This document shows positions 1-61,199 of a stretch of 64,000 bases of DNA, one piece after another (within the stretch, counting starts at the first letter, position 1; each line of letters opens with the position of its first letter). The stretch comes from a virus (lineage: Duplodnaviria; Heunggongvirae; Uroviricota; Caudoviricetes), in the IMG/VR virus record IMGVR_UViG_2548876947_000004. One strand, written 5' to 3'. Position numbers and translations under genes: made by a program. The notes beneath the pieces are model-generated. The model was not told the origin of the DNA. It worked only from the letters and a program-made list of their open reading frames with translations, and ran no database searches.

Positions 1-1413
1 CGTGCTCAACAGGGGGATCTTTTCACCGCTTGTGCCAAGTTCTCTTAAACCAAGGTATTGGATAACGGCCAGTGTGCTTGTTTTAGCCAGAATATCGCGA
101 CCGACTGACGTTAAATCAGTCTGAGCTACCGTATCCTTACCAGTGAAATAAGGCAGTTTGTTTGCACCAGTCGCAAGGGCAGCGAGAGCGGTTAAAGTTG
201 CATCCAGAGGCTGTTTGCCTGCCAGCGCATTTGTCATTGTTGTCGCAAAGTTCGGGTCATTGCCAAGTGCTGCGGCAAGCTCATTCAGGGTATCAAGAGC
301 TTCTGGTGATGAACCAACCAATGCGGATATGGCAGCTCTTACATAAGCGGTCGTAGCAATCTGCGTGTTATTCGTACCCTGTTCAGCGGTAGGCGCAGTA
401 GGTATTCCCGTTAATGCAGGACTTGCTAAAGGAGCTTTAAGAGCCAGAGCATTGTTGATAGTTGTGCTGAAATTCGGGTCGTTATTGATCGCAGCAGCTA
501 TTTCTTTAAGCGTATCCAGTGTGCCAGGTGCACCGTTGATAAGTGCCGTTATAGCTGCCTTAACAAAGGCTGTATTTGCGATCTGCGTGCTATTTGTACC
601 TTGCGCTGCCGTCGGCGCGGTTGGCGTTCCTGTCAGACTCGGGCTTTCTATTGGCGCTTTGGTATCAGCAAGATCTTTTACAGACTTAACGGCTTTAGGG
701 GTAGCCGCCATTGTTTCGCTGTCGCTGTTAGTTTCGCTACTGAGCTGAACTAATCCCTTTTGCGTTGTGCTTGCATCCTGCGCCGTATACTTGCTTTTCG
801 CCAGATCGTAGGCTTTTTTAACTGCCAGCGAACTTGCAGCAACATCACTTCTGCTACTGGTTACAGAGTCTGAAATATCAATGCCGATCGTGCGGTTAAT
901 ACGCTCGGATGTATCAATCATCTCCTGGGTAATGGCTGATACTCCAGCAGGGATATTCACCGTACAAACAAGCAGCTCCCCATCTCCTAACTGATATGAA
1001 TCGGTATAGGTTCTGGTAACAAATTCAGCCGCATGAATATGTGACGCGGTATTAACCTGATAGGTATCCTCTCCAAGGAGGTATCTTCCCTTCAGCACAA
1101 TTGCATATTTCTTACCTGCGCTAAGTGCAAGAGAAATATCCTTACGATGCTGAATAGTTACCTGGTAGAATTCACCAATATCCACTGACGCTGCGCCAGC
1201 AGTTTTATCACCATCCACAGAGGTGATTAACAGGTTCATCCCACCGCCAGGCTTAGGTAAGAAACCGGCATAAAATCCCGGGTCAACAATCCCCCTGAAT
1301 TTTCGGTTTAGCGCGGCTGACAGATATGGTTCGTGGTATTGCACATCAGCAACCAGAGCCAACGACTCGGGTGATGGGTAAGTAACCGATGTAACAACTG
1401 TAACGTCATTCAT
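1..1413 (-). CDS. S: Tail fibre protein, N-terminal (constant) part; partial, 3' end lies beyond window start
   Basis: Minus-strand ORF from ATG at 1413-1411 reads without stop to position 1 (MNDVTVVTSVTYPSPESLALVADVQYHEPYL...); contains tandem ~30-aa repeats PxLTGxPTAPTAxQGTNxTQIAxTA(F/Y)VxAAIxAL typical of myovirus side tail fibre shafts. Not in the ORF track because it has no stop in the window. Confidence 0.75.
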   Translation of the reverse strand, partial: MNDVTVVTSVTYPSPESLALVADVQYHEPYLSAALNRKFRGIVDPGFYAGFLPKPGGGMNLLITSVDGDKTAGAASVDIGEFYQVTIQHRKDISLALSAGKKYAIVLKGRYLLGEDTYQVNTASHIHAAEFVTRTYTDSYQLGDGELLVCTVNIPAGVSAITQEMIDTSERINRTIGIDISDSVTSSRSDVAASSLAVKKAYDLAKSKYTAQDASTTQKGLVQLSSETNSDSETMAATPKAVKSVKDLADTKAPIESPSLTGTPTAPTAAQGTNSTQIANTAFVKAAITALINGAPGTLDTLKEIAAAINNDPNFSTTINNALALKAPLASPALTGIPTAPTAEQGTNNTQIATTAYVRAAISALVGSSPEALDTLNELAAALGNDPNFATTMTNALAGKQPLDATLTALAALATGANKLPYFTGKDTVAQTDLTSVGRDILAKTSTLAVIQYLGLRELGTSGEKIPLLST

Positions 1414-1424
1414 CAAGCATATCC

Positions 1425-1859
1425 TTATGCTGTAGTCGTGTTTATGGCCATAACTGCGGTATATGTTTTGCCCACATACAGCGAGTCCTCCTGGACACAA
1501 ATAATGGCGATTGGCTTGTTCTCGTTATCCAGAACAACCAGAGTGTTGAATGGGTAGTTTTTCCCTTCCTGCAACTGGCTTTGATCAAGGTCCATTCGGA
1601 CAGTAATTATCCCACCTGAGTAGGTTGGCACGAGGTTGATGGTACAAAATTGGCTGGTCAGTTCTGCCAGATCGAAAGCCTTTGGCAGTTCTCCAATCTC
1701 ATAAGTGCCATCTCCTTTCTTAGTAACCAGAGAACTGGTACCGAAAACGGCCTTGCTGATTAAAAATCGAGAGCCTTTGTTAATGGACGATTCAGCGCGC
1801 CGCTGATAGTAATAGTCCAACAACTGACTCTTATAGAGGTTTGTTGAGACGTCAGACAT
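1425..1859 (-). CDS. Tail-fibre-associated structural protein (144 aa), position of P1 gene R
   Basis: Complete ORF immediately upstream of the fibre gene on the same strand; assignment by position only. Confidence 0.4.
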   Translation of the reverse strand: MSDVSTNLYKSQLLDYYYQRRAESSINKGSRFLISKAVFGTSSLVTKKGDGTYEIGELPKAFDLAELTSQFCTINLVPTYSGGIITVRMDLDQSQLQEGKNYPFNTLVVLDNENKPIAIICVQEDSLYVGKTYTAVMAINTTTA

Positions 1860-1937
1860 GATTTTCCCTAATCAATGTTGTGAAGCCTCATTGTAAGAGA
1901 AGTAACTTGTCACCCCGCCCTGCGGACGGGGTGATTG

Positions 1938-2777
1938 TCAGGCGTCGCTATCCAGCAACAAATCATCTGCGCGGGTGCGATCAAACGTAGGTGTCGCTTT
2001 CACAATAGTGCCACCAGGCGTTGCGGTGATCGGGGCGCTAATCGACGTAACTCCAGTAAGCGAAGTTGTATCCGAAGTTTCAAACCAGCAGAATGCTTTT
2101 TCGGTATCAGAAATCTCGTTCAAAGTGATCATGTCGGCCTGTTCATTTACAACAACCGACAAATAGAGCGTAAGCCCATCAAACACTATATGCAGTGGCA
2201 GTAGAGGCTTTACGAACTGATTAAACTTTCTGAGAATTTCTTCTGTAATTGCGGACTGATCTATCGTGCCAGTAATACCCATTGTCCGGGCCAGGTCGTT
2301 TATGGGAATACTGATCATCCCTCTGGAAGTCAGAAACATCTCGCCGAATGTGCCGCCGGTAGTCTCCAATGTGCTTTCTGGTATTAGAACTGTGCCATAG
2401 GGATGACGCTCAAGGTCCACCGGTGCATATATCGGATCCCATAAAACAGAAATACCGTTAAATTCGCGGTAAATTGTCTGGTTTATAGGACGTTCAGTTC
2501 CCTTAAAGTGGATCTCATCAAGCCGCTGTTGTAACAACATCGGAACGGAAGATGAGTTCGAGGTTCTGATAGTAAAGAACTGGCCAAGTTCATTTGTCCT
2601 GGTCTCCAGATCCTCCTTGCTCATGGAGAAAATAGACTTCCGGTTGGTAATTCGCTCCAACCATGGGTCAACAAAGGTGTCCATCATTGACTGAATCAAA
2701 TCAGCCAATGATTTATAGAGCAATGACTTTTGCTTAGCTGATGTAAGCCGGTTATTAAACCAGGAACGCTGCATCAC
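1938..2777 (-). CDS. Baseplate/tail structural protein (279 aa)
   Basis: ORF in co-oriented structural block; stop overlaps start of upstream gene (translational coupling). Confidence 0.4.
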   Translation of the reverse strand: MMQRSWFNNRLTSAKQKSLLYKSLADLIQSMMDTFVDPWLERITNRKSIFSMSKEDLETRTNELGQFFTIRTSNSSSVPMLLQQRLDEIHFKGTERPINQTIYREFNGISVLWDPIYAPVDLERHPYGTVLIPESTLETTGGTFGEMFLTSRGMISIPINDLARTMGITGTIDQSAITEEILRKFNQFVKPLLPLHIVFDGLTLYLSVVVNEQADMITLNEISDTEKAFCWFETSDTTSLTGVTSISAPITATPGGTIVKATPTFDRTRADDLLLDSDA

Positions 2778-4207
2778 TCCTCCTCATACGAAATATTAAA
2801 GGTGGAGTTTTCTGTATCCAGATAAACGAAATCGTAAAAGCCGTTGGACTCATTCCACTCGACAAATTCCAGATAAAAGTCGCGGAAATAACCCAGCGTT
2901 TCGATAAACGCCCAAACGTCTTTTTTCTTAATCAGGATGTACTTCCCGACGCGGTTCGGATCAAAGAAAGTTGAGTCGCGCCCAAATTTTGTTTCCAGCG
3001 CCGACTTCAGCTCATCGGTCACATTCTCAATGGTCAGGCTTGCCGATATCCGTCCGGTGATGGTTATCTTAAATGGTAGTTTTCTGACCTCTTTATACGA
3101 GAATTTCTTGTTCAACTCATTCGGCACCTTCTTAAAGGCAGCCAGGATCATTTCTTCAAGCTCTGACTGGCTTTTATTTGGATGCCACCCTGAAATAAAT
3201 ATCTTATTGATATTCCGAACATTATAAGCACCATCTAATTTCTCTTGCCGGCCTTCGCCCCATGCCTTTACCCAGGACAGTCCCGGGATGTTACGCACCA
3301 GAAAATACGTATAGTCCCCGCCCCATACGACCTGATCATCATAGGCAAGGTAATATTGTGCACGGTTACGTGTGATCTCCGTTGTTTCGGCATCGGTACC
3401 TGCGGTTATAGGTGTCGTTGTCTTAACTGAAATCATATTAGCTAAATTAGCCGCAGAATCGACAGGCGTCAGGTTTTGGCCAGCAACCAGGGTTATATCG
3501 CCGTTGGTGCACCATACCTTAAGCGTAATGGTCGAGCCTTCTGGCGGTATTTGCCCAATTAGCCCATCACCGAATCGAACCCCCAACTGCTCGGATGGTT
3601 TATAAAACTCAACGTAGACCTGGCTTTTACTACCGGCTAACCGGAACATAGTGCTGGAAGACCACTGCGTGGTCTTACCATCGGTCGTCACGAATACTTC
3701 CAGCTTATAGCAGACAGCAGTGAGAGCCTTTGATAACACGACTTCCAGAAATTCTTTGGCTGCCGTAACGGTATATGTCACCTCCTGGATTTCCAACTGT
3801 GCCACTTCTACCGTACCGGTGCCGTCAACCAACCTGCATACATCCATAGTCATGTAAGGATACTGGTCGTCAGATATTAAAGGCATGTTTTTGGGGATTA
3901 CCGCTGGGGCATCTTCACTTGTGGCGGTGATCTCAATCATCCCCGATGACGGTGTTGGCTTGGTACCAACGTAACTATTCGTTTCTGCCGCTGCCAGGAT
4001 AGAAGAACGCCGCGTCGCGGTCGATATAAAGCCTTCAGCCAGCGCCGCATCGGCATACTGAAAGCACCTGTAGACAATCTGGGTAATAAACAATGTCAGC
4101 ATCGAGACAAATTGAGAGCCGACAAACTTCGACCAGAATGAATCTTTCTCGACAAGCTCTTCAAACTCTGCACGAATACTGTCTTTAGTAGGTGTTGTTT
4201 TACTCAT
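2774..4207 (-). CDS. Baseplate structural protein (477 aa)
   Basis: Long ORF, 4-nt overlaps with both neighbours; position between small baseplate protein and fibre genes. Confidence 0.4.
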   Translation of the reverse strand: MSKTTPTKDSIRAEFEELVEKDSFWSKFVGSQFVSMLTLFITQIVYRCFQYADAALAEGFISTATRRSSILAAAETNSYVGTKPTPSSGMIEITATSEDAPAVIPKNMPLISDDQYPYMTMDVCRLVDGTGTVEVAQLEIQEVTYTVTAAKEFLEVVLSKALTAVCYKLEVFVTTDGKTTQWSSSTMFRLAGSKSQVYVEFYKPSEQLGVRFGDGLIGQIPPEGSTITLKVWCTNGDITLVAGQNLTPVDSAANLANMISVKTTTPITAGTDAETTEITRNRAQYYLAYDDQVVWGGDYTYFLVRNIPGLSWVKAWGEGRQEKLDGAYNVRNINKIFISGWHPNKSQSELEEMILAAFKKVPNELNKKFSYKEVRKLPFKITITGRISASLTIENVTDELKSALETKFGRDSTFFDPNRVGKYILIKKKDVWAFIETLGYFRDFYLEFVEWNESNGFYDFVYLDTENSTFNISYEEE

Positions 4208-12663: not shown

Positions 12664-12857
12664 TAATAAATTTGTCTTTTTAAGTCACGAATGCTATCTT
12701 TTCGCATCATATTGACCTTTTAATCGTTCAGGCTTATAGTTCCGCCGTCGTAGCAAATTCTGCGACCGGGTTTAGCAGCCTGAATACTTACGCGGACAAC
12801 CGCAGATTTCCGATATTGCGGTATTTTTGTGTCCGTAAACCACGTTACGCCCGAATT

Positions 12858-12940
12858 ATGGTGGGGCGTGATGGGGAGGCTTCGGCCTGCTGGTTTCGTA
12901 AGTGCCAGTCTGCTAACCCCGTCACGTCCTGCCACCTGTT
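12858..12940 (+). ncRNA. c4: c4-like antisense RNA (immI regulator), copy 1
   Basis: Between operator and icd: 10-bp closing stem (cgtgatgggg / ccccgtcacg, one G-U) around two hairpins (aggc-ttcg-gcct; ctgg-tttcgtaagtg-ccag). Loop tttcgtaagt is complementary to acttacgagg covering the icd SD at 12967-12976. Boundaries approximate. Confidence 0.45.
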
Positions 12941-16374: not shown

Positions 16375-16497
16375 TACAATCGTTGCGGGTGCTTGAGGCT
16401 ATCTGCTTCAGGCATTACCCGAAAAGCAGATAGAAGAAAGCCCCAGATAACATTACGCGTCCTGCAAGACGCTTAACATTAATCTGAGGCCATATCT

Positions 16498-16704
16498 ATG
16501 CTTAGCATACGTAGATTAGCCTCTTACCGACCAAAAGGTCAAGGAGAAGCAGGCTATGAAGCAGCAAAAAGCGATGTTAATCGCTCTGATCGTCATCTGT
16601 TTAACCGTCATTGTGACGGCACTGGTAACGAGGAAAGACCTCTGCGAGGTACGAATCCGAACCGGCCAGACGGAGGTCACTGTCTTCACAGCCTACGAAT
16701 CTGA
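16498..16704 (+). CDS. mok-like overlapping reading frame of the hok locus
   Basis: 68-aa ORF overlapping the hok-like gene in another frame, as in hok/mok/sok loci. Confidence 0.3.
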   Translation: MLSIRRLASYRPKGQGEAGYEAAKSDVNRSDRHLFNRHCDGTGNEERPLRGTNPNRPDGGHCLHSLRI

Positions 16705-28725: not shown

Positions 28726-29623
28726 GCACTGGAAAAACATTACTATTTATAAACTTTCTCGTGAGGCGGATCTGACCGACTTAGAAGATAAAAAGAAAAT
28801 GATCCTTTTCACGCCATGCGGTAGTCAGGATATGGCCAAGTTCGGTTTTGTATCGCCATTTGGTGATAATTCCGAAGTTATCGCTATGCATGGAAATGGT
28901 TTTATCCTTGTTGAAGCAAAGCGCGAAACAAAAATTCTTCCCCCGCCGGTTATCCAGCGAGCTATTCAAGAAAAAATTGAAAAACTTGAGCAAGAACAAG
29001 CGCGTAAACTGAAGAAAACAGAGAAGGACTCCCTGAAAGACGAAGTTCTGCATTCTCTTCTGCCACGGGCTTTTTCAAAGTTTTCTGTTATCCAGGCGAT
29101 CTACGACGGTTCAACTAAACGTATCTATATCAATGCCAGCGCGCGGCAGGCAGAGGATATGCTCGCGCTTATGCGTAAGTCTCTGGGTTCTCTTCCTGTT
29201 GTTCCCCTGAGTGTTGAAAATCCCATTGAATTAACGCTGACCGACTGGGTACGTGATGGTAGTGCTCCACAGGGATTTCAAATGGGGGATGCGGCAGAAC
29301 TTAAGGCAGTGCTTGAGGATGGCGGTATTGCCCGAGTGAAAAAGCAGGATTTGGGAAGCGATGAAATTTCCACACACCTGGAAGCTGGCAAGCTCGTCAC
29401 TAAGTTGGCACTCGACTGGCAGAACCGCATTAAATTTACACTGGACCATAACTTCAGCCTTACCAGCGTCAAATTTGCGGATGAATTGCTTGAGCAGAAC
29501 TCTGATATTGATAGTGAAGATGTAGCGCAGCGACTGGACGCAGATTTCTTCCTGTTGACCAGTGAAATTTCGTGCCTGGTTGATGCTCTGGTAAATGCCC
29601 TTGGTGGAGAGGCTAAGCAGTGA
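28718..29623 (+). CDS. hrdC: RdgC-like recombination-associated protein (301 aa)
   Basis: N-terminus [19 protein letters not shown]...[17 protein letters not shown] matches the RdgC family signature; start at internal ATG 28718 rather than the ORF-track start. Confidence 0.8.
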
Positions 29624-32600
29624 AAGAGCTGTGCTATGGATCTGTTTGCAGTGGAATTGAAGCTGCGAGTATTGCTTGGGAACCTTTGGGTATGCGTCCG
29701 GCCTGGTTTGCTGAAATTGAGCCTTTTCCATCTGCCGTTCTTGCGCACCGTTGGCCTCATGTCGCCAATCTTGGCGACATGACAAAACTTGCCAAAAAAG
29801 TCCTGGCAGGGGAAATCGAATCCCCTGATGTGCTGGTGGGAGGGACACCATGTTTTGCCGCGGGCCATATGGTTCTTTGTAAAAATGGTTATAAACCAAT
29901 AGAAGATGTTTGCCCAGGCGATTACGTAGTCAGTCATCTCGGGCGGTTACAACAAGTAAAAAGAGTTGGTTCAAAAATAGCTAATACGGGGTTACTTAAT
30001 GCCGTTGGGCAGCCTTTAGGTATAAGAACAACCAATGACCATCCCTTCCTGGCGGTTCGGTGGAAAGCCCAAAACACCCGGAAAAATGGCACATATTTTA
30101 AGAGAGAGTTGTTGTCTGAACCGGAATGGCGAGCAGCATGTGATATGCCGGGATATCAATGGTGTGCTCTAACTAATTTCAATATTGCATCTCCAGATAT
30201 TTGTTCTCGGTTCTTGTCTGAAGAACAGGCTATGTATCTTGCGGGCGCTTATGTTGGCGATGGATATATTAGGAGATGGAGAGGTAAATCTAAGAAGGCG
30301 GTTGTTTTTGGCATAAATTGCCAGAAATTGAGAAAGTTTCATTGCCGCATACCAGAAAACATATTTTCCGTGGCAAGCGAAATCCGAGGGAGCATCAAAG
30401 TAACCTTGAATGATACGTGTTATGCCAATTGGCTTAATGAACATTTTGGCGAGTTAAGCCATGCTAAGCGTATCCCTGCATGGGTGATGTCGCATCCATT
30501 GCGTCATGTGTTTTTACAAGGCTATCTTGATACTGATGGGACACCAAGTGGTAAAGCGGGATTTAGAATTAATAGTGTTAGTCCTGCGCTTGCTTGGGGC
30601 GTTGCGGAGTTGTCACAGACTTGTGGTTATGTTTCTTCGGTCAGCTTTATTGAAGTTGAGCCCAAAAAAGTGATTGAGGATCGCGTGGTAAATCAACGGA
30701 ATTATTATCAGGTAACAATCTGCCCGCAGAAATTGTCACGTAAATCAAGATTGGCTCATGGAATGCTTTTACGAACAGTCAAAGAGTTTAAATCGGTAGG
30801 CCTAGATACTGTATACAACATAGAAGTCGAAGGTGATCATTCCTATATCCTCAATGGTGCGGTGGTCCATAACTGTCAGGCATTCAGTATCGCTGGATTA
30901 CGTGGTGGGCTTGATGATGAGCGTGGCGCGCTAACTTTAAAGTATGTGGAGCTTGCAAATGCAATTGACGACAAACGGGCTGAGTCATTTCTCAAACCAG
31001 CCGTTATCGTCTGGGAAAATGTCCCAGGAGTCTTGTCATCGGCAGATAACGCCTTCGGATGTTTCCTTGCCGGATTGGCTGGAGAAGATGCGCCATTCGA
31101 ACCAGGTGATCGACCTGAATCAGGAAAAAGTAACGCGTTCTGGCGGTGGGATGTCAAAACCGGTTGCCATGCTCCAAAGTGGCCGCAGTGTGGTTGTATT
31201 TATGGACCGCAGCGAAAAGTGGCCTGGAGAATCCTTGATGCCCAATACTTCGGAGTGGCACAACGACGCCGACGCGTGTTTGTTGTCGCAAGTGCTCGAA
31301 CAGACCTCGATCCCGCAACGGTACTTTTTGAGTTCGAAGGCGTGCGCCGGAATATTGCGCCGAGCCGAAAAAAGAAGGAAATCGCTTCCGCCATTATTGC
31401 AAATGGCGCTGCAATCAGTGGCGAAAGCCTAAATCCATGCCTACACGCTGACATGCCACCCGGTATGAAATCGACGAAAGCCGTAAACGCTTTCAGGATG
31501 GCAGCATTTGGGGAATATATTGACGATGAAACCGCATCGACAGTAAAGGCAAGAGATTTTAAAAATGCCACTGATCTTGCCGTTTTTAGCAGCACAGGAG
31601 CAGGTTTTTGGTCAGAAGGGCATGGTACATTGCGGGCACGTGAGCAAGAAAGCCATGAGCATCTTGTTACATTGGCTTTTCCTGAGCGTATAAGCGGTAC
31701 ACAACATGCTGCAACTAAGAATACTTCACCATCTCTAATGGCTAAAAATCCAACAGCTGTTTGCTATGAAGTAAGAAACGCAGAAGTAGCTGTCCGCCGT
31801 CTTACCCCTGTCGAATGTGAAAGGCTGCAAGGTTTTCCTGATGGGCATACGTTGATCCCTACGGAAAAGCGTAAAAAAGTTAATTCAGATGAACTGGCAT
31901 ATCTTCGCAATCACTATCCAGATTTAAGCGAAGAAGAGGCCGCGATGCTTGCAGCTGACGGACCGCGTTACAAAGCGATCGGCAATAGTATGGCGATACC
32001 AGTAATGTGCTGGATTGGCGATCGGATTACTAAGGCCGTATGCCGGCAGAAAGAAGGAAGTGAAACAAAAGAGCGAAAAGTTAAACCAGCGGCAGAATTC
32101 GAACGGTCCATATTCAAATGGGCTGGTGGAAAATTTGGTGTTCTGGAACAAATCTTTCGCTATTTGCCAGAAGGGAAGCGCCTGATTGAACCTTTCGTTG
32201 GTGGCGGAGCTGTCTTCATGAATGCCGGATACCAGGAAAATCTGCTAAATGATGTGAATGCTGACCTGATTAACTTTTACAAGACTCTGCAACGCGAGGC
32301 GCATTCACTTATCACTCTGGCACATCGTTTCTTCCTGGACTACAACACCCAGGAGGGATTCCTGGCAGTACGGAATGCGTTTAACAAACAAGTCTATGAT
32401 GATTTACATCGCGCAGCGGCGTTTTTGTTCCTGAACCGACATTGTTTTAATGGATTGACGCGCTACAACCAGGCCGGTGAGTTCAATGTCGGTTATGGGA
32501 AGTATAAAACTCCGTATTTCCCATTACAGGAGATGGAAGCCTTCCTCGGTGCGGAAGGGCGGTCTGAGTTTGTATGCGGTGATTTTGCAGCAGTGATTGA

Positions 32601-32907
32601 AGCTGCCGGAGAAGGAGATGTCATCTTTTGCGATCCGCCGTATGAACCGCTCCCCAATACAGAGGGGTTCACGAACTATTCCGGTCATGACTTTAAGTTT
32701 GAAGAGCAAAAACGCCTGGTGTCTCTGTTGACGGATGCTCATCGCCGAGGTGCAAAGGTACTCATTACTAACAGTGGCGCGCCAAACATCAGAGAGCTTT
32801 ATCAGGACAGTGGCTTCAGAGTGGAACCTCTCTTTGCCAGACGTTCTGTGTCTTGTAAGGGAGACACTCGTGGTGTTGCTCATGACGTTATGGCAATATT
32901 GCTCTAA
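29620..32907 (+). CDS. dmt: Bifunctional DNA methyltransferase (C5-cytosine domain followed by Dam-like N6-adenine domain), interrupted by an intein; 1095 codons
   Basis: C5-MTase motifs GGTP|CQAFS (IV, split by the intein), [20 protein letters not shown]; then Dam-like KWAGGKF...[10 protein letters not shown] and DPPY. GTG start overlaps the rdgC-like stop. Confidence 0.85.
29851..30873 (+). mobile_element. Intein with LAGLIDADG homing-endonuclease domain (341 codons) inside the methyltransferase gene
   Basis: Begins with Cys (CFAAGHMV...), has block-B-like TTNDHPF, two LAGLIDADG-type motifs ([21 protein letters not shown]), ends ...[20 protein letters not shown] followed by Cys+1; removal restores GGTP-CQAFS. 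Confidence 0.8.
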
Positions 32908-32924
32908 TAAATTTATTAGTGTAA
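32898..32924. promoter_or_regulatory. Bipartite C1 operator (two overlapping sites in opposite orientation)
   Basis: ATTGCTCTAATAAATTT (perfect 17/17) overlapping the reverse complement of ATTACACTAATAAATTT; immediately after the methyltransferase stop. Confidence 0.7.
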
Positions 32925-33582
32925 TATCGCCTCAATGAATCGTGATTTATAGAGCGATTTAGCTGTTAGCCGCGACAGGCGCGGCGGCAAGTATGGCGGG
33001 GTAGTGACTCCTTCCCCCTCATGACGCCGAGTTGCCAGGTTGACCATACGCCTAAGTGGCAACACCGAAGTGCGTTACGAGCTTCCAGTTTGCCCATCTT
33101 CGGGTGGGCGTTTTTTTCAGGGTTTTCGTCATGGTTAGCGACTTTGCGGCGGTTTAGAAACTGACCATTAAAGTAAATGCAAACGATGATCTGATGATGG
33201 TAGCGGCCTAAGAAGCCAGATGCCACGGGGTATGAGTCGTCACCCGTCAAAAAATCGACCGCAGAGTGTCCCCGTCTGTGTATTAGGGAACGGGGAGGCA
33301 CAACAGGTAAGGGCGCTGGTGTGATTAACCAGATGAACGAGAAGGGGCCATCTGTTGGTCAGCGTCCTTTCCTGTTGCGTCTTCTTTTCAGCGTAACAGC
33401 GGTGCTTAACAGCACTTTGGGTACAGTTCCACGAATTTACGGGTATATCCCGTCATGCTGAAGGCGCTAATCACGCTGGAAGCCAGGGTTATGCATCCCC
33501 TGTTACCGAATTGCAGTCAGGGCGCGGTGCGCCGAAAAGCATACGGAGGTGGAAGCCCTCGCCGGAGACGTACCCGGCAAGT

Positions 33583-33658
33583 GATGGTGTAGCTCAGTGG
33601 TTAGAGCGGTTGACTGTTAATCAACGGGTCGATGGTTCAAATCCATCCACCATCGCCA
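33583..33658 (+). tRNA. tRNA-Asn (anticodon GTT)
   Basis: Cloverleaf folds by hand: acceptor GATGGTG/CACCATC, D-arm GCTC-AGTGGTTA-GAGC, anticodon loop CTGTTAA, T-arm GATGG-TTCAAAT-CCATC, discriminator G, CCA encoded. Confidence 0.85.
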
Positions 33659-33660
33659 AT

Positions 33661-33736
33661 GCCGGTTTAGCTCAGTTGGTAGAGCGCCTGCCTTGTAAGC
33701 AGGATGTCAGCGGTTCGAGTCCGTTAACCGGCACCA
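33661..33736 (+). tRNA. tRNA-Thr (anticodon TGT)
   Basis: Acceptor GCCGGTT/AACCGGC, D-arm GCTC-AGTTGGTA-GAGC, anticodon stem CCTGC/GCAGG with loop CTTGTAA, T-loop TTCGAGT, CCA encoded; 2 nt after tRNA-Asn. Confidence 0.85.
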
Positions 33737-34471
33737 ACACAACAGGTAAGGGTATTTTGCGACGTCGGAGATCGCCGTGCTTGGCAGAGGGTTCGAATCC
33801 CTACGAAGTACCCTTACCGTTGTGATGAAGTGCAGCTCTTTGAAGCAACCAGAAGATAAGCATCTGGCTTCACAACATAAACCGCAGGAACGACCAATAA
33901 ACGGTAGTCCGTATGGAGAACACCCCGTTGAGGAAGAGGCCTGGCCGGAACCGTAACCGGCACTACAACGTTGAGAACACTGGCGTAACGGGGTCATATC
34001 CCAATCTACGAATAAATGTTGCGTTGCAGCGTGACAACCAGTGTTCTCAACATTGTGGTGAATGCACAGGCTGATGTGCCGCAACTACAGTAGCGCGCGC
34101 TTTGTGGGGCTTGCTACAACCCTGTGTCGGAGTTCAGCACCGACCATCACAGTTTGATTCTCTGGCATGAGCATAACGCTGAAATAAGTCCAGTCTGGTG
34201 CGGTCTGATCACCTGCCGTTAGCTCCACGAAACGGAGCACGTAACAGGTAAGAGCATTCTCCTGTAACGGGGTCATATCCCAATCTACAGGTCCACCAAG
34301 AATGCTCTTTCCGTTGCGGTGAATGCGGCTAAGCGCATGCGGGGAAATGGTTATATCTGTCCATTATTTCTCCTTGTTTCCCCGCCCACGGTGGATAACC
34401 AGCCAAAGGACACTGGGAGGCACCCGGCACCGCAATCTAATAAATATGTCACTTTTATTGAGGGATAACCA

Positions 34472-35180: not shown

Positions 35181-35256
35181 GGCCCCTTAGCTCAGTGGTT
35201 AGAGCTGGCGACTCATAATCGCACGGTCACCGGTTCAAGTCCGGTAGGGGCCACCA
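35181..35256 (+). tRNA. tRNA-Ile2-like (anticodon CAT, lysidine type; could alternatively be read as Met)
   Basis: GGCCCCTTAGCTCAGTGGTTAGAGC...CTCATAA...GGTTCAAGTCC...AGGGGCCACCA closely resembles bacterial tRNA-Ile(CAU) as I recall it; one mismatch at the top of the anticodon stem. Confidence 0.75.
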
Positions 35257-52687: not shown

Positions 52688-53046
52688 GAGTTGCAGATCA
52701 CATCAAACACCTTGAAAGAATTATCGAAAACGGTGAACTCTTAAGAGATCAGATGAGACGCACGGCAGAAGCCAGGGAGGCGATAATCCGCAGTCAGGCT
52801 GGTAAATTAAAGCAATTGTCAGAGATTAACACGCTATACAAGAACAGATGTAACCGGGCGGTGATGCGGCTTCAGAAAGCACGTAATGAAATTAAATTGG
52901 TGGAGGCAAAACTGAAAAAACAGATCCAGCGTTACGATCAGCAAGATGCTTTTTATGCCGCCATCAAGGCGGCTGCTAATGAAATAGGCATCTGGAAGTT
53001 GCTGGTGGAGAAAGCAAAGACGAAGTTAAATGCCAACGAAAGCTGA
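52684..53046 (+). CDS. Coiled-coil protein (120 aa), last gene of the plus-strand operon
   Basis: ORF overlapping the upstream stop; highly charged heptad pattern. Confidence 0.45.
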   Translation: MRVADHIKHLERIIENGELLRDQMRRTAEAREAIIRSQAGKLKQLSEINTLYKNRCNRAVMRLQKARNEIKLVEAKLKKQIQRYDQQDAFYAAIKAAANEIGIWKLLVEKAKTKLNANES

Positions 53047-60882: not shown

Positions 60883-61059
60883 TTTTTTAGCTGCCGATGT
60901 TACATTGAACCTGACCTCTTGCGCCTTGAGGCATTTTCGGTTTATGCTTATCAGGCACCTCATTAAAACGGGTGCCGGGATTGGCCTCCCGCTTAAGTCT
61001 AAGGCGATACAGACGCCGCTCGCGTCTTTTTTTTGTATCGGCGTACACGCACACCTCTA

Positions 61060-61140
61060 CAATGGTGGGCTGTATGGGGCTACCTTCGGGTAGGCTGGTT
61101 ACCTTGGACGCCAGTAAGGCCAACTCCGTACAGTCCACCG
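61060..61140 (+). ncRNA. c4-like antisense RNA, copy 2 (divergent sequence, same architecture)
   Basis: Closing stem ctgtatgg/ccgtacag around hairpins ctacc-ttcg-ggtag and ctgg-ttaccttggacg-ccag; loop ccttggacg is complementary (9 bp, one G-U) to cgtctaagg covering the SD of the downstream icd-like gene (61180-61188). Confidence 0.4.
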
Positions 61141-61199
61141 CCAGCAAGATTGGTCTCTTCTGCGGTGGTTACATACCAACGTCTAAGGAGGCTGCCAAT

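Follow-up and report, generated by a model that had tools for sequence, protein, structure and literature searches.

We analyzed four stem-bounded segments, here called E1 to E4, in a 64,000-nucleotide (nt) stretch of phage DNA (IMG/VR record IMGVR_UViG_2548876947_000004; hereafter, the window), which belongs to a P1-like phage and shows 97-98% identity to P1 (NC_005856) over 68669-70200. E1 to E4 are real, conserved, and covarying plus-strand RNA hairpins of a phage-borne family, and they sit in the untranslated leader of the ban operon, which is under C1 control, as placed by mapping the P1 annotation onto the window (L001 position 1501 = window 32900, 97% identity). E1 is the long helix of an RNA related to transfer-messenger RNA (tmRNA), and E2 to E4 head partial duplicates of the 3' domain of that RNA. 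The hairpins themselves are so far unannotated elements of a familiar kind, and full-text searching found no literature on them. The explanation that we favor, if tentatively and with a little less than even confidence, is that they are RNA punctuation helices, i.e., RNase III-type processing or stabilizing sites between the modules of a polycistronic non-coding precursor. The four hairpins are as follows:

33288-33389, plus strand: E1, a long hairpin with 34 pairs; arms 33296-33318 and 33360-33382, 83% complementary.
33735-33827, plus strand: E2, a stem of 16 base pairs (bp) with one bulged A and an outer extension.
33961-34060, plus strand: E3, a long hairpin of 22-23 bp; 23-nt arms, 91% complementary.
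34240-34318, plus strand: E4, a long hairpin; pairs 6+2+11 with bulges.

All four exist at or near the positions at which an earlier note, made by a model from the letters of the window, had placed them, and its interval for E4 (34240-34315) was essentially right. Predicted plus-strand folding energies are -48.1 kcal/mol for E1, -40.8 for E2, -48.1 for E3, and -37.3 for E4, with z-scores of -5.25, -5.36, -7.99, and -6.52, respectively, against 200 dinucleotide shuffles, none of which folded as well (0/200), and the minus strand is weaker by 6-15 kcal/mol in each case (-33.6, -35.0, -42.1, and -31.7 kcal/mol). A uniform hairpin scan of the 64-kb plus strand yielded ten hairpins that score at least 30, with E1, E2, and E3 among the top four. 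The internal motifs that the earlier note reported as shared are real as well, including a 25-nt exact repeat (GTAACGGGGTCATATCCCAATCTAC at 33985-34009 in E3 and 34264-34288 in E4) and GGTGAATGC, which directly follows the stem at 34057 and 34318; in addition, GGGTATATCCC occurs at 33441 and CACAACAGGTAAGGG is present three times.

Relatives bear additional hairpins of the same kind, both at this locus and at the tRNA clusters of unrelated phages, and the family of structured elements suggested by the earlier note is borne out, with members in P1-like, SSU5-like, lambdoid, N4-like, T1-like, and Ackermannviridae phages (named carriers: P7, D6, SJ46, Ro157c2YLVW, the SSU5-like phage-plasmids CMS-2020a, Cyrano, and pJN2-26, N4, and lambdoid prophages). 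The lower stem is conserved in sequence as 5'-CACAAC(A)GKURAG ... CUYAMC-GUUGYG-3' (in E1, CACAAC at 33299 is paired with GUUGCG at 33379), and the upper stems and loops differ completely between members. When the arms of 26 distinct members were aligned, 96.5% of cells were paired, a figure that is partly by construction as members were gathered by the hairpin scan, and 13 of the 20 pairs had changed on both sides, one stem position being A-U, C-G, or G-C depending on the member. None of 500 shuffles matched this pairing, slid registers were only 35-54% paired, and the covariation is meaningful because the base and flanks of the hairpins are homologous. E1 orthologues, collected independently by BLAST, vary little, and their changes keep pairing (C-G to U-A, and several G·U to G-C), so that the compensatory stem changes proposed as a check on the earlier note were seen in both sets. 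The distance from a tRNA 3' end to the start of a hairpin is 0-3 nt in the window (Thr), in SSU5-like phages (Thr, Asn, Ser), in N4 (Thr, Pro), and in P7 and D6 (Ser), and other family copies precede or follow modules that are not tRNAs. As a separate observation, the segment between tRNA-Ile and ban (P7, L005 3105-3219) is shared with the lambdoid phage mEp460 (L116 1301-1400; ...GGTCTGG.GACGTTAAAGGGG...CCAGGTAGCCGGAATGTGCAAG...), where this non-coding segment sits just upstream of the family hairpin of mEp460.

The many G·U pairs argue for a particular strand, because the opposite strand, or a cruciform, would have C·A mismatches at these positions; since the strand co-oriented with the tRNAs also scores better throughout the family, selection appears to act on plus-strand RNA and not on DNA. 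Protein-binding DNA sites, one of the suggestions of the earlier note, are disfavored by these pairs, which are present only on the plus strand. It is likewise improbable, in our judgment, that the palindromes are DNA-level recombination or mobility sites (attC-like sites, palindromes like those of miniature inverted-repeat transposable elements, or cassette boundaries) that shuffle tRNA and small-RNA cassettes. Such sites would suit a hairpin base that resembles attC cores (...AAC / GTT...) with a bulged base, conserved arms that are obvious substrates for homologous exchange, and a locus that is plainly mosaic: among P1-like and related phages (L002, L004, L005, L007, L245, L014, L017), tRNA-Asn and tRNA-Thr may be accompanied by tRNAs for Tyr(GUA), Ser(UGA), or Arg(UCU), E2 interiors are exchanged between relatives and replaced in P7, and E3 and E4 have recombined. 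Yet the G·U pairs are confined to the plus strand, which is consistently the more stable one, the elements are all oriented with the operon, and plain homology of repeats such as the 25-nt repeat explains the recombination; further, the neighbors are tRNAs and non-coding RNA and not cassette open reading frames (ORFs), and no integron-type integrase context was noticed, although no integrase search was made.

The interiors of the hairpins hold pieces that resemble tRNAs, and the earlier note had offered degenerate tRNA genes as one reading. T-arm-like pieces occur in E2 (AGGGTTCGAATCCCT / GGGUUCGAAUCCC, the former being the T-loop-like motif that the earlier note rightly pointed to in the window) and in E3 and E4 (GGGGUCAUAUCCC, with GGGUUCAUAUCCC in P1), E2 has a 7-bp acceptor-like pairing (UAUUUUG/CGAAGUA), and the E4 interior joins the T-arm-like GGGGUCAUAUCCC to an acceptor-like CAGGUCCACCA. 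The last 7 nt of the latter, UCCACCA at 34293-34299, equal the last 7 nt of E. coli tmRNA and are preceded by CAGG with a U at the U70-equivalent position; a 5' acceptor strand complementary to this CAGGUCC-ACCA was looked for and none was found. The UCCACCA of E4 may be the remnant of a 3' end from a tmRNA or tRNA, and the T-arm-like interiors of E2, E3, and E4 may more generally be remnants of 3' ends, tRNA or tmRNA-like, that became trapped in hairpins. That the elements as a whole are decaying tRNA genes is very improbable, even though the set of real tRNAs at this locus varies by gain and loss among relatives. The only tRNAs that ARAGORN and Rfam call in the window are tRNA-Asn, tRNA-Thr, and tRNA-Ile, in keeping with the lack of canonical cloverleaves already remarked on by the earlier note, and searches of E1 to E4 with ARAGORN and with Rfam at the gathering threshold and at an E-value of 10 gave no tRNA or known RNA family beyond microRNA-precursor noise that reflects the long stems. 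Further, it is the stems that are conserved, with a covarying 20-bp helix that is foreign to any tRNA, whereas the tRNA-like pieces lie in interiors that are dispensable in relatives and unrelated in family members of other phages: no conserved T-arm (GTTCRANYC) is kept in the orthologues of P7, Ro157c2YLVW, and SSU5-like phages, and the E2 motif AGGGTTCGAATCCCT is found neither in the E2 orthologues of P7 and Ro157c2YLVW nor in SSU5-like relatives.

The hairpins are spread along a leader whose other features are:

32882-32927, plus strand: promoters P1ban and P2ban (Pban) with the C1 operator Op72ab, which drive the whole leader (P1 annotation).
33022-33123, plus strand: dicF-like region, which ends in an intrinsic terminator (P1 annotation).
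33583-33658, plus strand: tRNA-Asn(GUU) (ARAGORN and Rfam).
33661-33736, plus strand: tRNA-Thr(UGU) (ARAGORN and Rfam).

The operon runs from P1ban/P2ban and Op72 through the dicF-like region, tRNA-Asn, tRNA-Thr, tciA (34472), tciB, tciC, and tRNA-Ile(CAU) to ban; the third tRNA called in the window is this tRNA-Ile, at 35181-35256 (ARAGORN and Rfam). By consensus scan from Pban to tciA, the leader has a single intrinsic terminator, at 33091-33116, and no additional sigma-70 promoter was detected on the plus strand. About 1.5 kb of untranslated RNA has to be read through before tciA and ban. Separately, a 12-nt perfect complement (33212-33223 / 33860-33871; GAAGCCAGATGC / GCATCTGGCTTC) brackets E1, both tRNAs, and E2; it is marginal, with roughly 0.08 expected by chance, and could form a long-range stem like those around rRNAs.

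Within the same leader, listed after tRNA-Thr and before tciA, P1 carries the minus-strand annotations plp and upl (NC_005856), and ORFs of 125 and 63 amino acids (aa) do exist there. We regard it as scarcely credible that the region codes for Plp and Upl: the plp-like ORF ranges over 68-139 aa among P1-like variants and runs antisense through tRNA-Thr, the predicted products are low-complexity sequence rich in Cys, Ser, and Gly, conservation tracks the RNA stems, and the ORFs are unannotated in P7, D6, and most RefSeq P1-like plasmids. The spurious look that the earlier note ascribed to the overlapping ORFs is well founded on the same grounds (lengths of 68-139 aa, antisense position to tRNA-Thr, and mostly missing RefSeq annotation).

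What, then, would the hairpins do in such a transcript? We propose that a precursor of about 1.5 kb, untranslated and polycistronic, would be made from Pban and punctuated by the hairpins, which would separate a putative tmRNA-directed RNA (leader, tag, and E1), the tRNAs, two or three partial 3'-domain duplicates (E2 to E4 with their tails, the last of them STnc100-like), and the message for tciABC, tRNA-Ile, and ban. Each hairpin would fold during transcription, its stem of at least 20 bp would probably be cut by host RNase III, the cut would free the neighboring RNA, notably by providing an entry point next to a tRNA CCA end, and the leftover half-stem may protect the resulting fragment. 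This reading draws on how long the stems are, on where they lie (between modules and at tRNA CCA ends), and on precedents in rRNA operons, T7, lambda, and the T4 tRNA cluster. RNase III of E. coli cuts stems of about two helical turns, and its known substrates include rRNA operons, transcripts of T7 and lambda, and the stable "species 1" RNA encoded among the T4 tRNA genes. Stems here reach the roughly 20 bp or more of such substrates (34 pairs in E1, 22-23 bp in E3, 16+6 in E2, and 6+2+11 in E4), and the E2 stem begins within the CCA end of tRNA-Thr (tRNA 3' end at 33736, stem start at 33735). The presence of one promoter region and one terminator in the leader, together with the recurrence of the hairpin-plus-tail module across distant phage families, further supports processing. 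Among the guesses of the earlier note, processed small RNAs come nearest.

Several observations weigh against the processing interpretation. First, the sequence specificity of RNase III is weak, which leaves the conserved lower-stem sequence unexplained; this conservation may reflect a second partner, an alternative closing helix, or slow evolution of paired bases. Such an alternative helix can indeed be drawn, as GUUGUGGUG can pair with the downstream CACCACAAC and leave the hairpin base open, and RNAalifold on four lytic phages prefers this GUUGUGGUG/CACCACAAC closing helix. Second, besides the partial circularity of the family alignment mentioned above, covariation among E1 orthologues is modest, with two pairs showing double changes and 23 of 500 shuffles reaching the observed pairing. 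Third, individual copies have been lost: Ro157c2YLVW is without the T-arm-like E4 core, and SJ46 (L006, 1714-1811) and L018 carry a hybrid that joins a 5' half from E3 to a 3' half from E4 and whose arms no longer pair, which arose in SJ46-type elements by recombination at the 25-nt repeat with deletion of ~280 bp. Because the hybrid is unpaired and the E4 core is lost in Ro157c2YLVW, we consider individual elements dispensable and the class maintained.

A different role for the hairpins would be to keep the long untranslated transcript alive, either by hiding Rho-loading sites within dense structure or through UGCUCUUU sequences in their 3' arms that would serve as boxA-like antitermination signals. 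The ~1.5 kb of untranslated RNA that must be traversed to reach tciA and ban makes such a role conceivable, and several 3' arms do hold UGCUCUUU; UGCUCUUU(A/C)C, which we take to be the boxA core of rRNA operons, is found in the 3' arms of E4 (34303-34312), L023, L117, L120, and P7. The motif is, however, sequestered in the stem and missing from E1, E2, and E3, and the boxA-like bases covary with the 5' arm (e.g., GCCCUUU / GGGUA in Klebsiella phage P01), which indicates that pairing is kept and not the boxA sequence. The identity to boxA is probably coincidental, and we rate this role as distinctly improbable.

E1 to E4 are the helical parts of four bigger paralogous units, in each of which the 3' arm runs into a tail. 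The earlier note, whose region began at 33296, missed both these units and the putatively tmRNA-directed leader and tag template that lie just 5' of it. A tail starts with GGUGAAUGC(G/A)CAGGCUGAUG(C/U)GC, which forms a small hairpin, and continues with a variable stretch, a terminal hairpin GCCGG-N9-CCGGC, and then CACCACAAC or a variant. The tail features of the window are:

33561-33578, plus strand: unit 1 terminal hairpin GCCGG-AGACGUAC-CCGGC, just 5' of tRNA-Asn, read from the sequence; homologous to GCCGGAGAUCAGCACCGGC in L117-L120.
33943-33969, plus strand: unit 2 terminal hairpin GGCCGG-AACCGUAA-CCGGC with ACUACAAC, read from the sequence; repeat D11.
34054-34152, plus strand: unit 3 tail domain, folded with UGUGGUG/CAUCACA enclosing the hairpin GCACAGGCUGAUGUGC and a terminal hairpin GUCGG..CCGAC (34126-34144).
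34314-34436, plus strand: unit 4 STnc100-like tail, in which UUGCGGUG (34314-34321) pairs with CACCGCAA (34428-34435); Rfam RF02076.

Units 3 and 4 retain the closing helix with a G·U pair and a compensatory change (UGUGGUG/CAUCACA and UUGCGGUG/CACCGCAA). A 45-nt core, made of the 3' arm and the start of the tail, recurs at ~90% identity in 85 records of lambdoid, Drexler-like, Jersey-like, Ackermannviridae, and Schitoviridae phages, mostly within gene-free islands that also hold tRNAs. The STnc100 model (RF02076) matches 34315-34434 at 30.6 bits over model positions 31-147 of 206 and does not reach its gathering score of 47, and a true STnc100 lies at 2524-2738 of Klebsiella phage P01 (L119) in a similar non-coding island. 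That island (300-3046) spans at least 2.7 kb without an annotated gene and is built of the same modules, namely several tRNA-like 3' ends that are not called as tRNAs, a tmRNA-related RNA, family hairpins, and STnc100.

These tails bring in the possibility, which we consider rather unlikely, that the hairpins are integral domains of mature trans-acting RNAs and not cleavage sites, E1 serving as a scaffold that replaces the tmRNA pseudoknots and E2 to E4 as the 5' domains of base-pairing small RNAs (sRNAs) like STnc100 and PasD. The tails resemble STnc100, and STnc100 and PasD are prophage Hfq-type sRNAs (bioRxiv 10.64898/2026.05.13.724894); conservation of the lower stem would fit recognition by a specific partner, and a long hairpin ~110 nt past the resume codon is part of a conserved RNA in many lineages. 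By contrast, loops and upper stems are unconserved, hairpins also stand directly after ordinary tRNAs without an sRNA tail, conservation is poor in the tails of units 2 and 3, and only unit 4 scores against STnc100, below threshold.

The relation of the E1-containing RNA to tmRNA rests on a tag template that precedes E1, in the following arrangement:

33119-33178, plus strand: leader, antisense to host tmRNA and complementary to nt ~68-107 of ssrA.
33179-33211, plus strand: tag template GCA AAC GAT GAT CTG ATG ATG GTA GCG GCC TAA, encoding ANDDLMMVAA and a stop.
33198-33224, plus strand: helix-5-like hairpin with the stop codon in its loop (from the fold).

The encoded peptide compares with ANDENYALAA of E. 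coli tmRNA, and its ORF (33179-33211) has neither a start codon nor a Shine-Dalgarno sequence. The leader ends in the resume-codon context UAAAU directly before GCA, whose U and A at -5/-4 match two positions that we take to be important for frame choice on tmRNA. Across viral contigs, the ORF occurs as 31 distinct sequences for 16 peptides, each of exactly 10 codons plus a stop, and the peptides fit AN(D/E)(D/E/N)...(A/V)A except for one single-copy variant that ends in AP (e.g., ANDDVVLMAA, ANEEMYLAVA, ANDEQFLAVA, and further variants in other phages). The frame varies as a coding sequence would: synonymous variants exist, and extra alleles number 14 at codon position 3, 10 at position 1, and 5 at position 2. 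The homologue of the helix-5-like hairpin covaries in an RNAalifold analysis of four lytic phages. A resume codon, an upstream UA, about 10 codons that end in hydrophobic-Ala-Ala, and a helix-5-like stop are therefore all present, as in a tmRNA tag frame. Another tag-like stretch, AAATGCCAACGA at 53028, encodes ANES and a stop and was dismissed as a chance match.

In lytic relatives, a near-consensus sigma-70 promoter leads into a ~370-nt RNA composed of the conserved leader, UAAAU followed by GCA AAC GAU..., the stop-codon hairpin, small hairpins, the long hairpin, the tail, and the terminal hairpin, after which come the tRNAs; the window shares this arrangement, and the long hairpin ~110 nt after the resume codon recurs in relatives from many lineages. 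Rfam tmRNA models match below threshold and exactly on the tag stretch only, with none reaching the gathering score of 47 (tmRNA_permuted at 24.1 bits in the window and 29.4 in L118, tmRNA at 7.7, and beta_tmRNA at 13.4 bits). No tRNA-like domain was found by ARAGORN in tmRNA mode on the window or on any phage locus holding the element, and in ZCKP8, where a sigma-70 promoter flanks the RNA on one side and two ordinary tRNAs on the other, there is not enough space for one. A complete tmRNA was thus rejected, as E4 offers no acceptor partner, compact relatives have no tRNA-like domain, and no permuted arrangement was seen. For context, a 2014 census of RefSeq phages found ssrA only in mycobacteriophages and named phage G and DS6A from outside its dataset (PMC4131195).

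In place of an acceptor, the leader offers complementarity to the host tmRNA itself, as judged against the real ssrA genes of E. coli, Salmonella, and Klebsiella. Three blocks of the window can pair with ssrA: GUUUUCGUC (33122-33130) with 96-104, GCGAC (33138-33142) with 87-91 across the resume codon, and UUUGCGGC (33143-33150) with 74-81. More generally, UAGUUUUCGU(C) is complementary to tmRNA nt 96/97-106, i.e., tag codons 3-6, and UUUGCGGCUUUUUA to nt 68-81, i.e., the A-run together with the 3' strand of pseudoknot 1. Collinear with ssrA, the blocks measure 14+10+5 nt in L118 (a Salmonella phage), 11+5+13 in L248 (a prophage), and 9+5+8 in the window; when 34 distinct leaders are compared, it is the tmRNA-complementary blocks that stay invariant, and the spacers vary in length and sequence. 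The leader has no comparable pairing to the tag region of its own RNA, which has diverged at the corresponding bases. Predicted leader/tmRNA duplexes reach -42 to -49 kcal/mol (z -4.9 to -7.3), and the leader is the best tmRNA-pairing site of 15,986 window segments (-49.3 kcal/mol), though others reach -46 to -48. Duplex energy was rejected as a test of specificity, and because energy alone does not discriminate, the antisense argument rests on the collinear exact blocks and their conservation. Matches of 8 or 9 nt to tmRNA elsewhere, including one in E2, are at chance level.

From these sequence features, we consider it possible, with real doubt, that the E1-containing RNA (33119-~33580) is a phage "coding piece" that would hijack host tmRNA by annealing to it, masking its template, and supplying a tag of its own. 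The leader may form a duplex with tmRNA nt ~68-107, a stretch that takes in tag codons 1-6 and the resume codon as well as the 3' side of pseudoknot 1, and may thereby mask the host template, and the RNA may offer its own resume codon and 10-codon template ~12-28 nt past the end of the duplex. Ribosomes rescued in infected or induced cells may then add a phage-specified tag, with the long hairpins and tails perhaps being the scaffold and processing signals of this RNA. In a weaker form of the idea, the RNA may inhibit trans-translation simply as an antisense molecule; that an ORF without ordinary initiation bears a coding signature favors a replacement template over mere blocking. Full-text searching found no literature on a phage RNA directed at tmRNA. 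Arg(UCU) and a CAU tRNA read as Ile are often among the tRNAs co-transcribed with this RNA, and in lytic relatives this pair usually follows the tmRNA-related RNA. Scarcity of tRNAs of the Arg(UCU) and Ile(CAU) type is known to cause stalling and tmRNA tagging, and the rare-codon tRNAs may for that reason belong to the same anti-stalling module.

The element is conserved across many phages of enterobacteria and is common in E. coli genomes, with two counts finding it in 599 and 670 of 5,426 complete E. coli genomes (~11-12%); in the latter count, 568 places are on plasmids and 151 on chromosomes, and they are unannotated. Elsewhere in the window, the methyltransferase ORF dmt (29620-32907) encodes 1095 aa compared with roughly 754 aa in P1, and Ro157c2YLVW has the same length. 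The extra segment lies between GGTP and CQAFS of the cytosine-methylase motif, starts with CFAAGH, ends with VVHN, and contains LAGLIDADG-like motifs, so from its sequence it looks like an intein with a homing endonuclease. A strong hairpin of 28 pairs (32416-32515) lies inside the dmt coding sequence and is also present in P1, P7, and SJ46. Above their gathering scores, Rfam models (12734-12939, 16387-16561, and 60955-61145) identify two C4 antisense RNAs, one c4 a1/b1 target element, a sok antitoxin RNA, and an isrK-like RNA that adjoins the second C4 antisense RNA.

P1 is among the best-studied phages, yet the annotation of this 1.5-kb stretch still consists of two doubtful ORFs; establishing the stretch as a modular operon of non-coding RNAs would put right the records of P1-like phage-plasmids and of many lytic phages used in therapy. 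Through the hairpin family, tRNA clusters, sRNAs of the STnc100/PasD type, and a tmRNA-related RNA become parts of one mobile non-coding module that phage families share. If true, the tmRNA-directed RNA would be a novel kind of host takeover, with a phage blocking or re-programming ribosome rescue by RNA alone, and a natural case of a tag template supplied in trans.

Among known systems, the hairpins compare with the RNase III processing sites of rRNA operons, T7 early RNA, and the lambda N leader and sib, and with the RNAs of the T4 tRNA cluster: all have stems of about two turns with occasional mismatches, lie between the functional RNAs of one long transcript and beside phage tRNA genes, and would accommodate the strand-specific G·U pairs of E1 to E4. 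They differ in that the lower stem CACAAC/GUUGUG of E1 to E4 is conserved across unrelated phages, that the copies are in tandem with homologous tails, and that cleavage is here a prediction. STnc100 shares the closing helix UGGUG/CACCA and the CCGGGAGGCACCCGG hairpin with the tail of unit 4, whereas the long hairpins fall outside its model and units 1-3 do not match. Integron attC sites are likewise imperfect palindromes of 60-120 nt with ...AAC / GTT... ends and an extrahelical base (a bulged A in some members), but CACAAC/GTTGTG is not a full fit to RYYYAAC/GTTRRRY, the G·U pairs and the asymmetry in stability point to RNA, the copies are co-oriented with transcription, and their interiors are not gene cassettes. 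GOLLD and ROOL are also structured non-coding RNA islands by phage tRNA genes, but they show no similarity in sequence or Rfam model, occur in other hosts, and form one ornate fold each where ours is a modular, repetitive island. The closest likeness of the E1-containing RNA is to tmRNA, especially to the coding piece of two-piece tmRNAs, with which it shares UA at -5/-4 before GCA, a 10-codon tag AN(D/E)...(A/V)A, a helix-5-like stop hairpin, and downstream helices; it is set apart by having no tRNA-like domain, pseudoknot 1, or CCA acceptor stem that we could find and, instead, a 5' leader antisense to host tmRNA. Like such a coding piece, the E1-containing RNA would need to pair with another, acceptor-bearing RNA.

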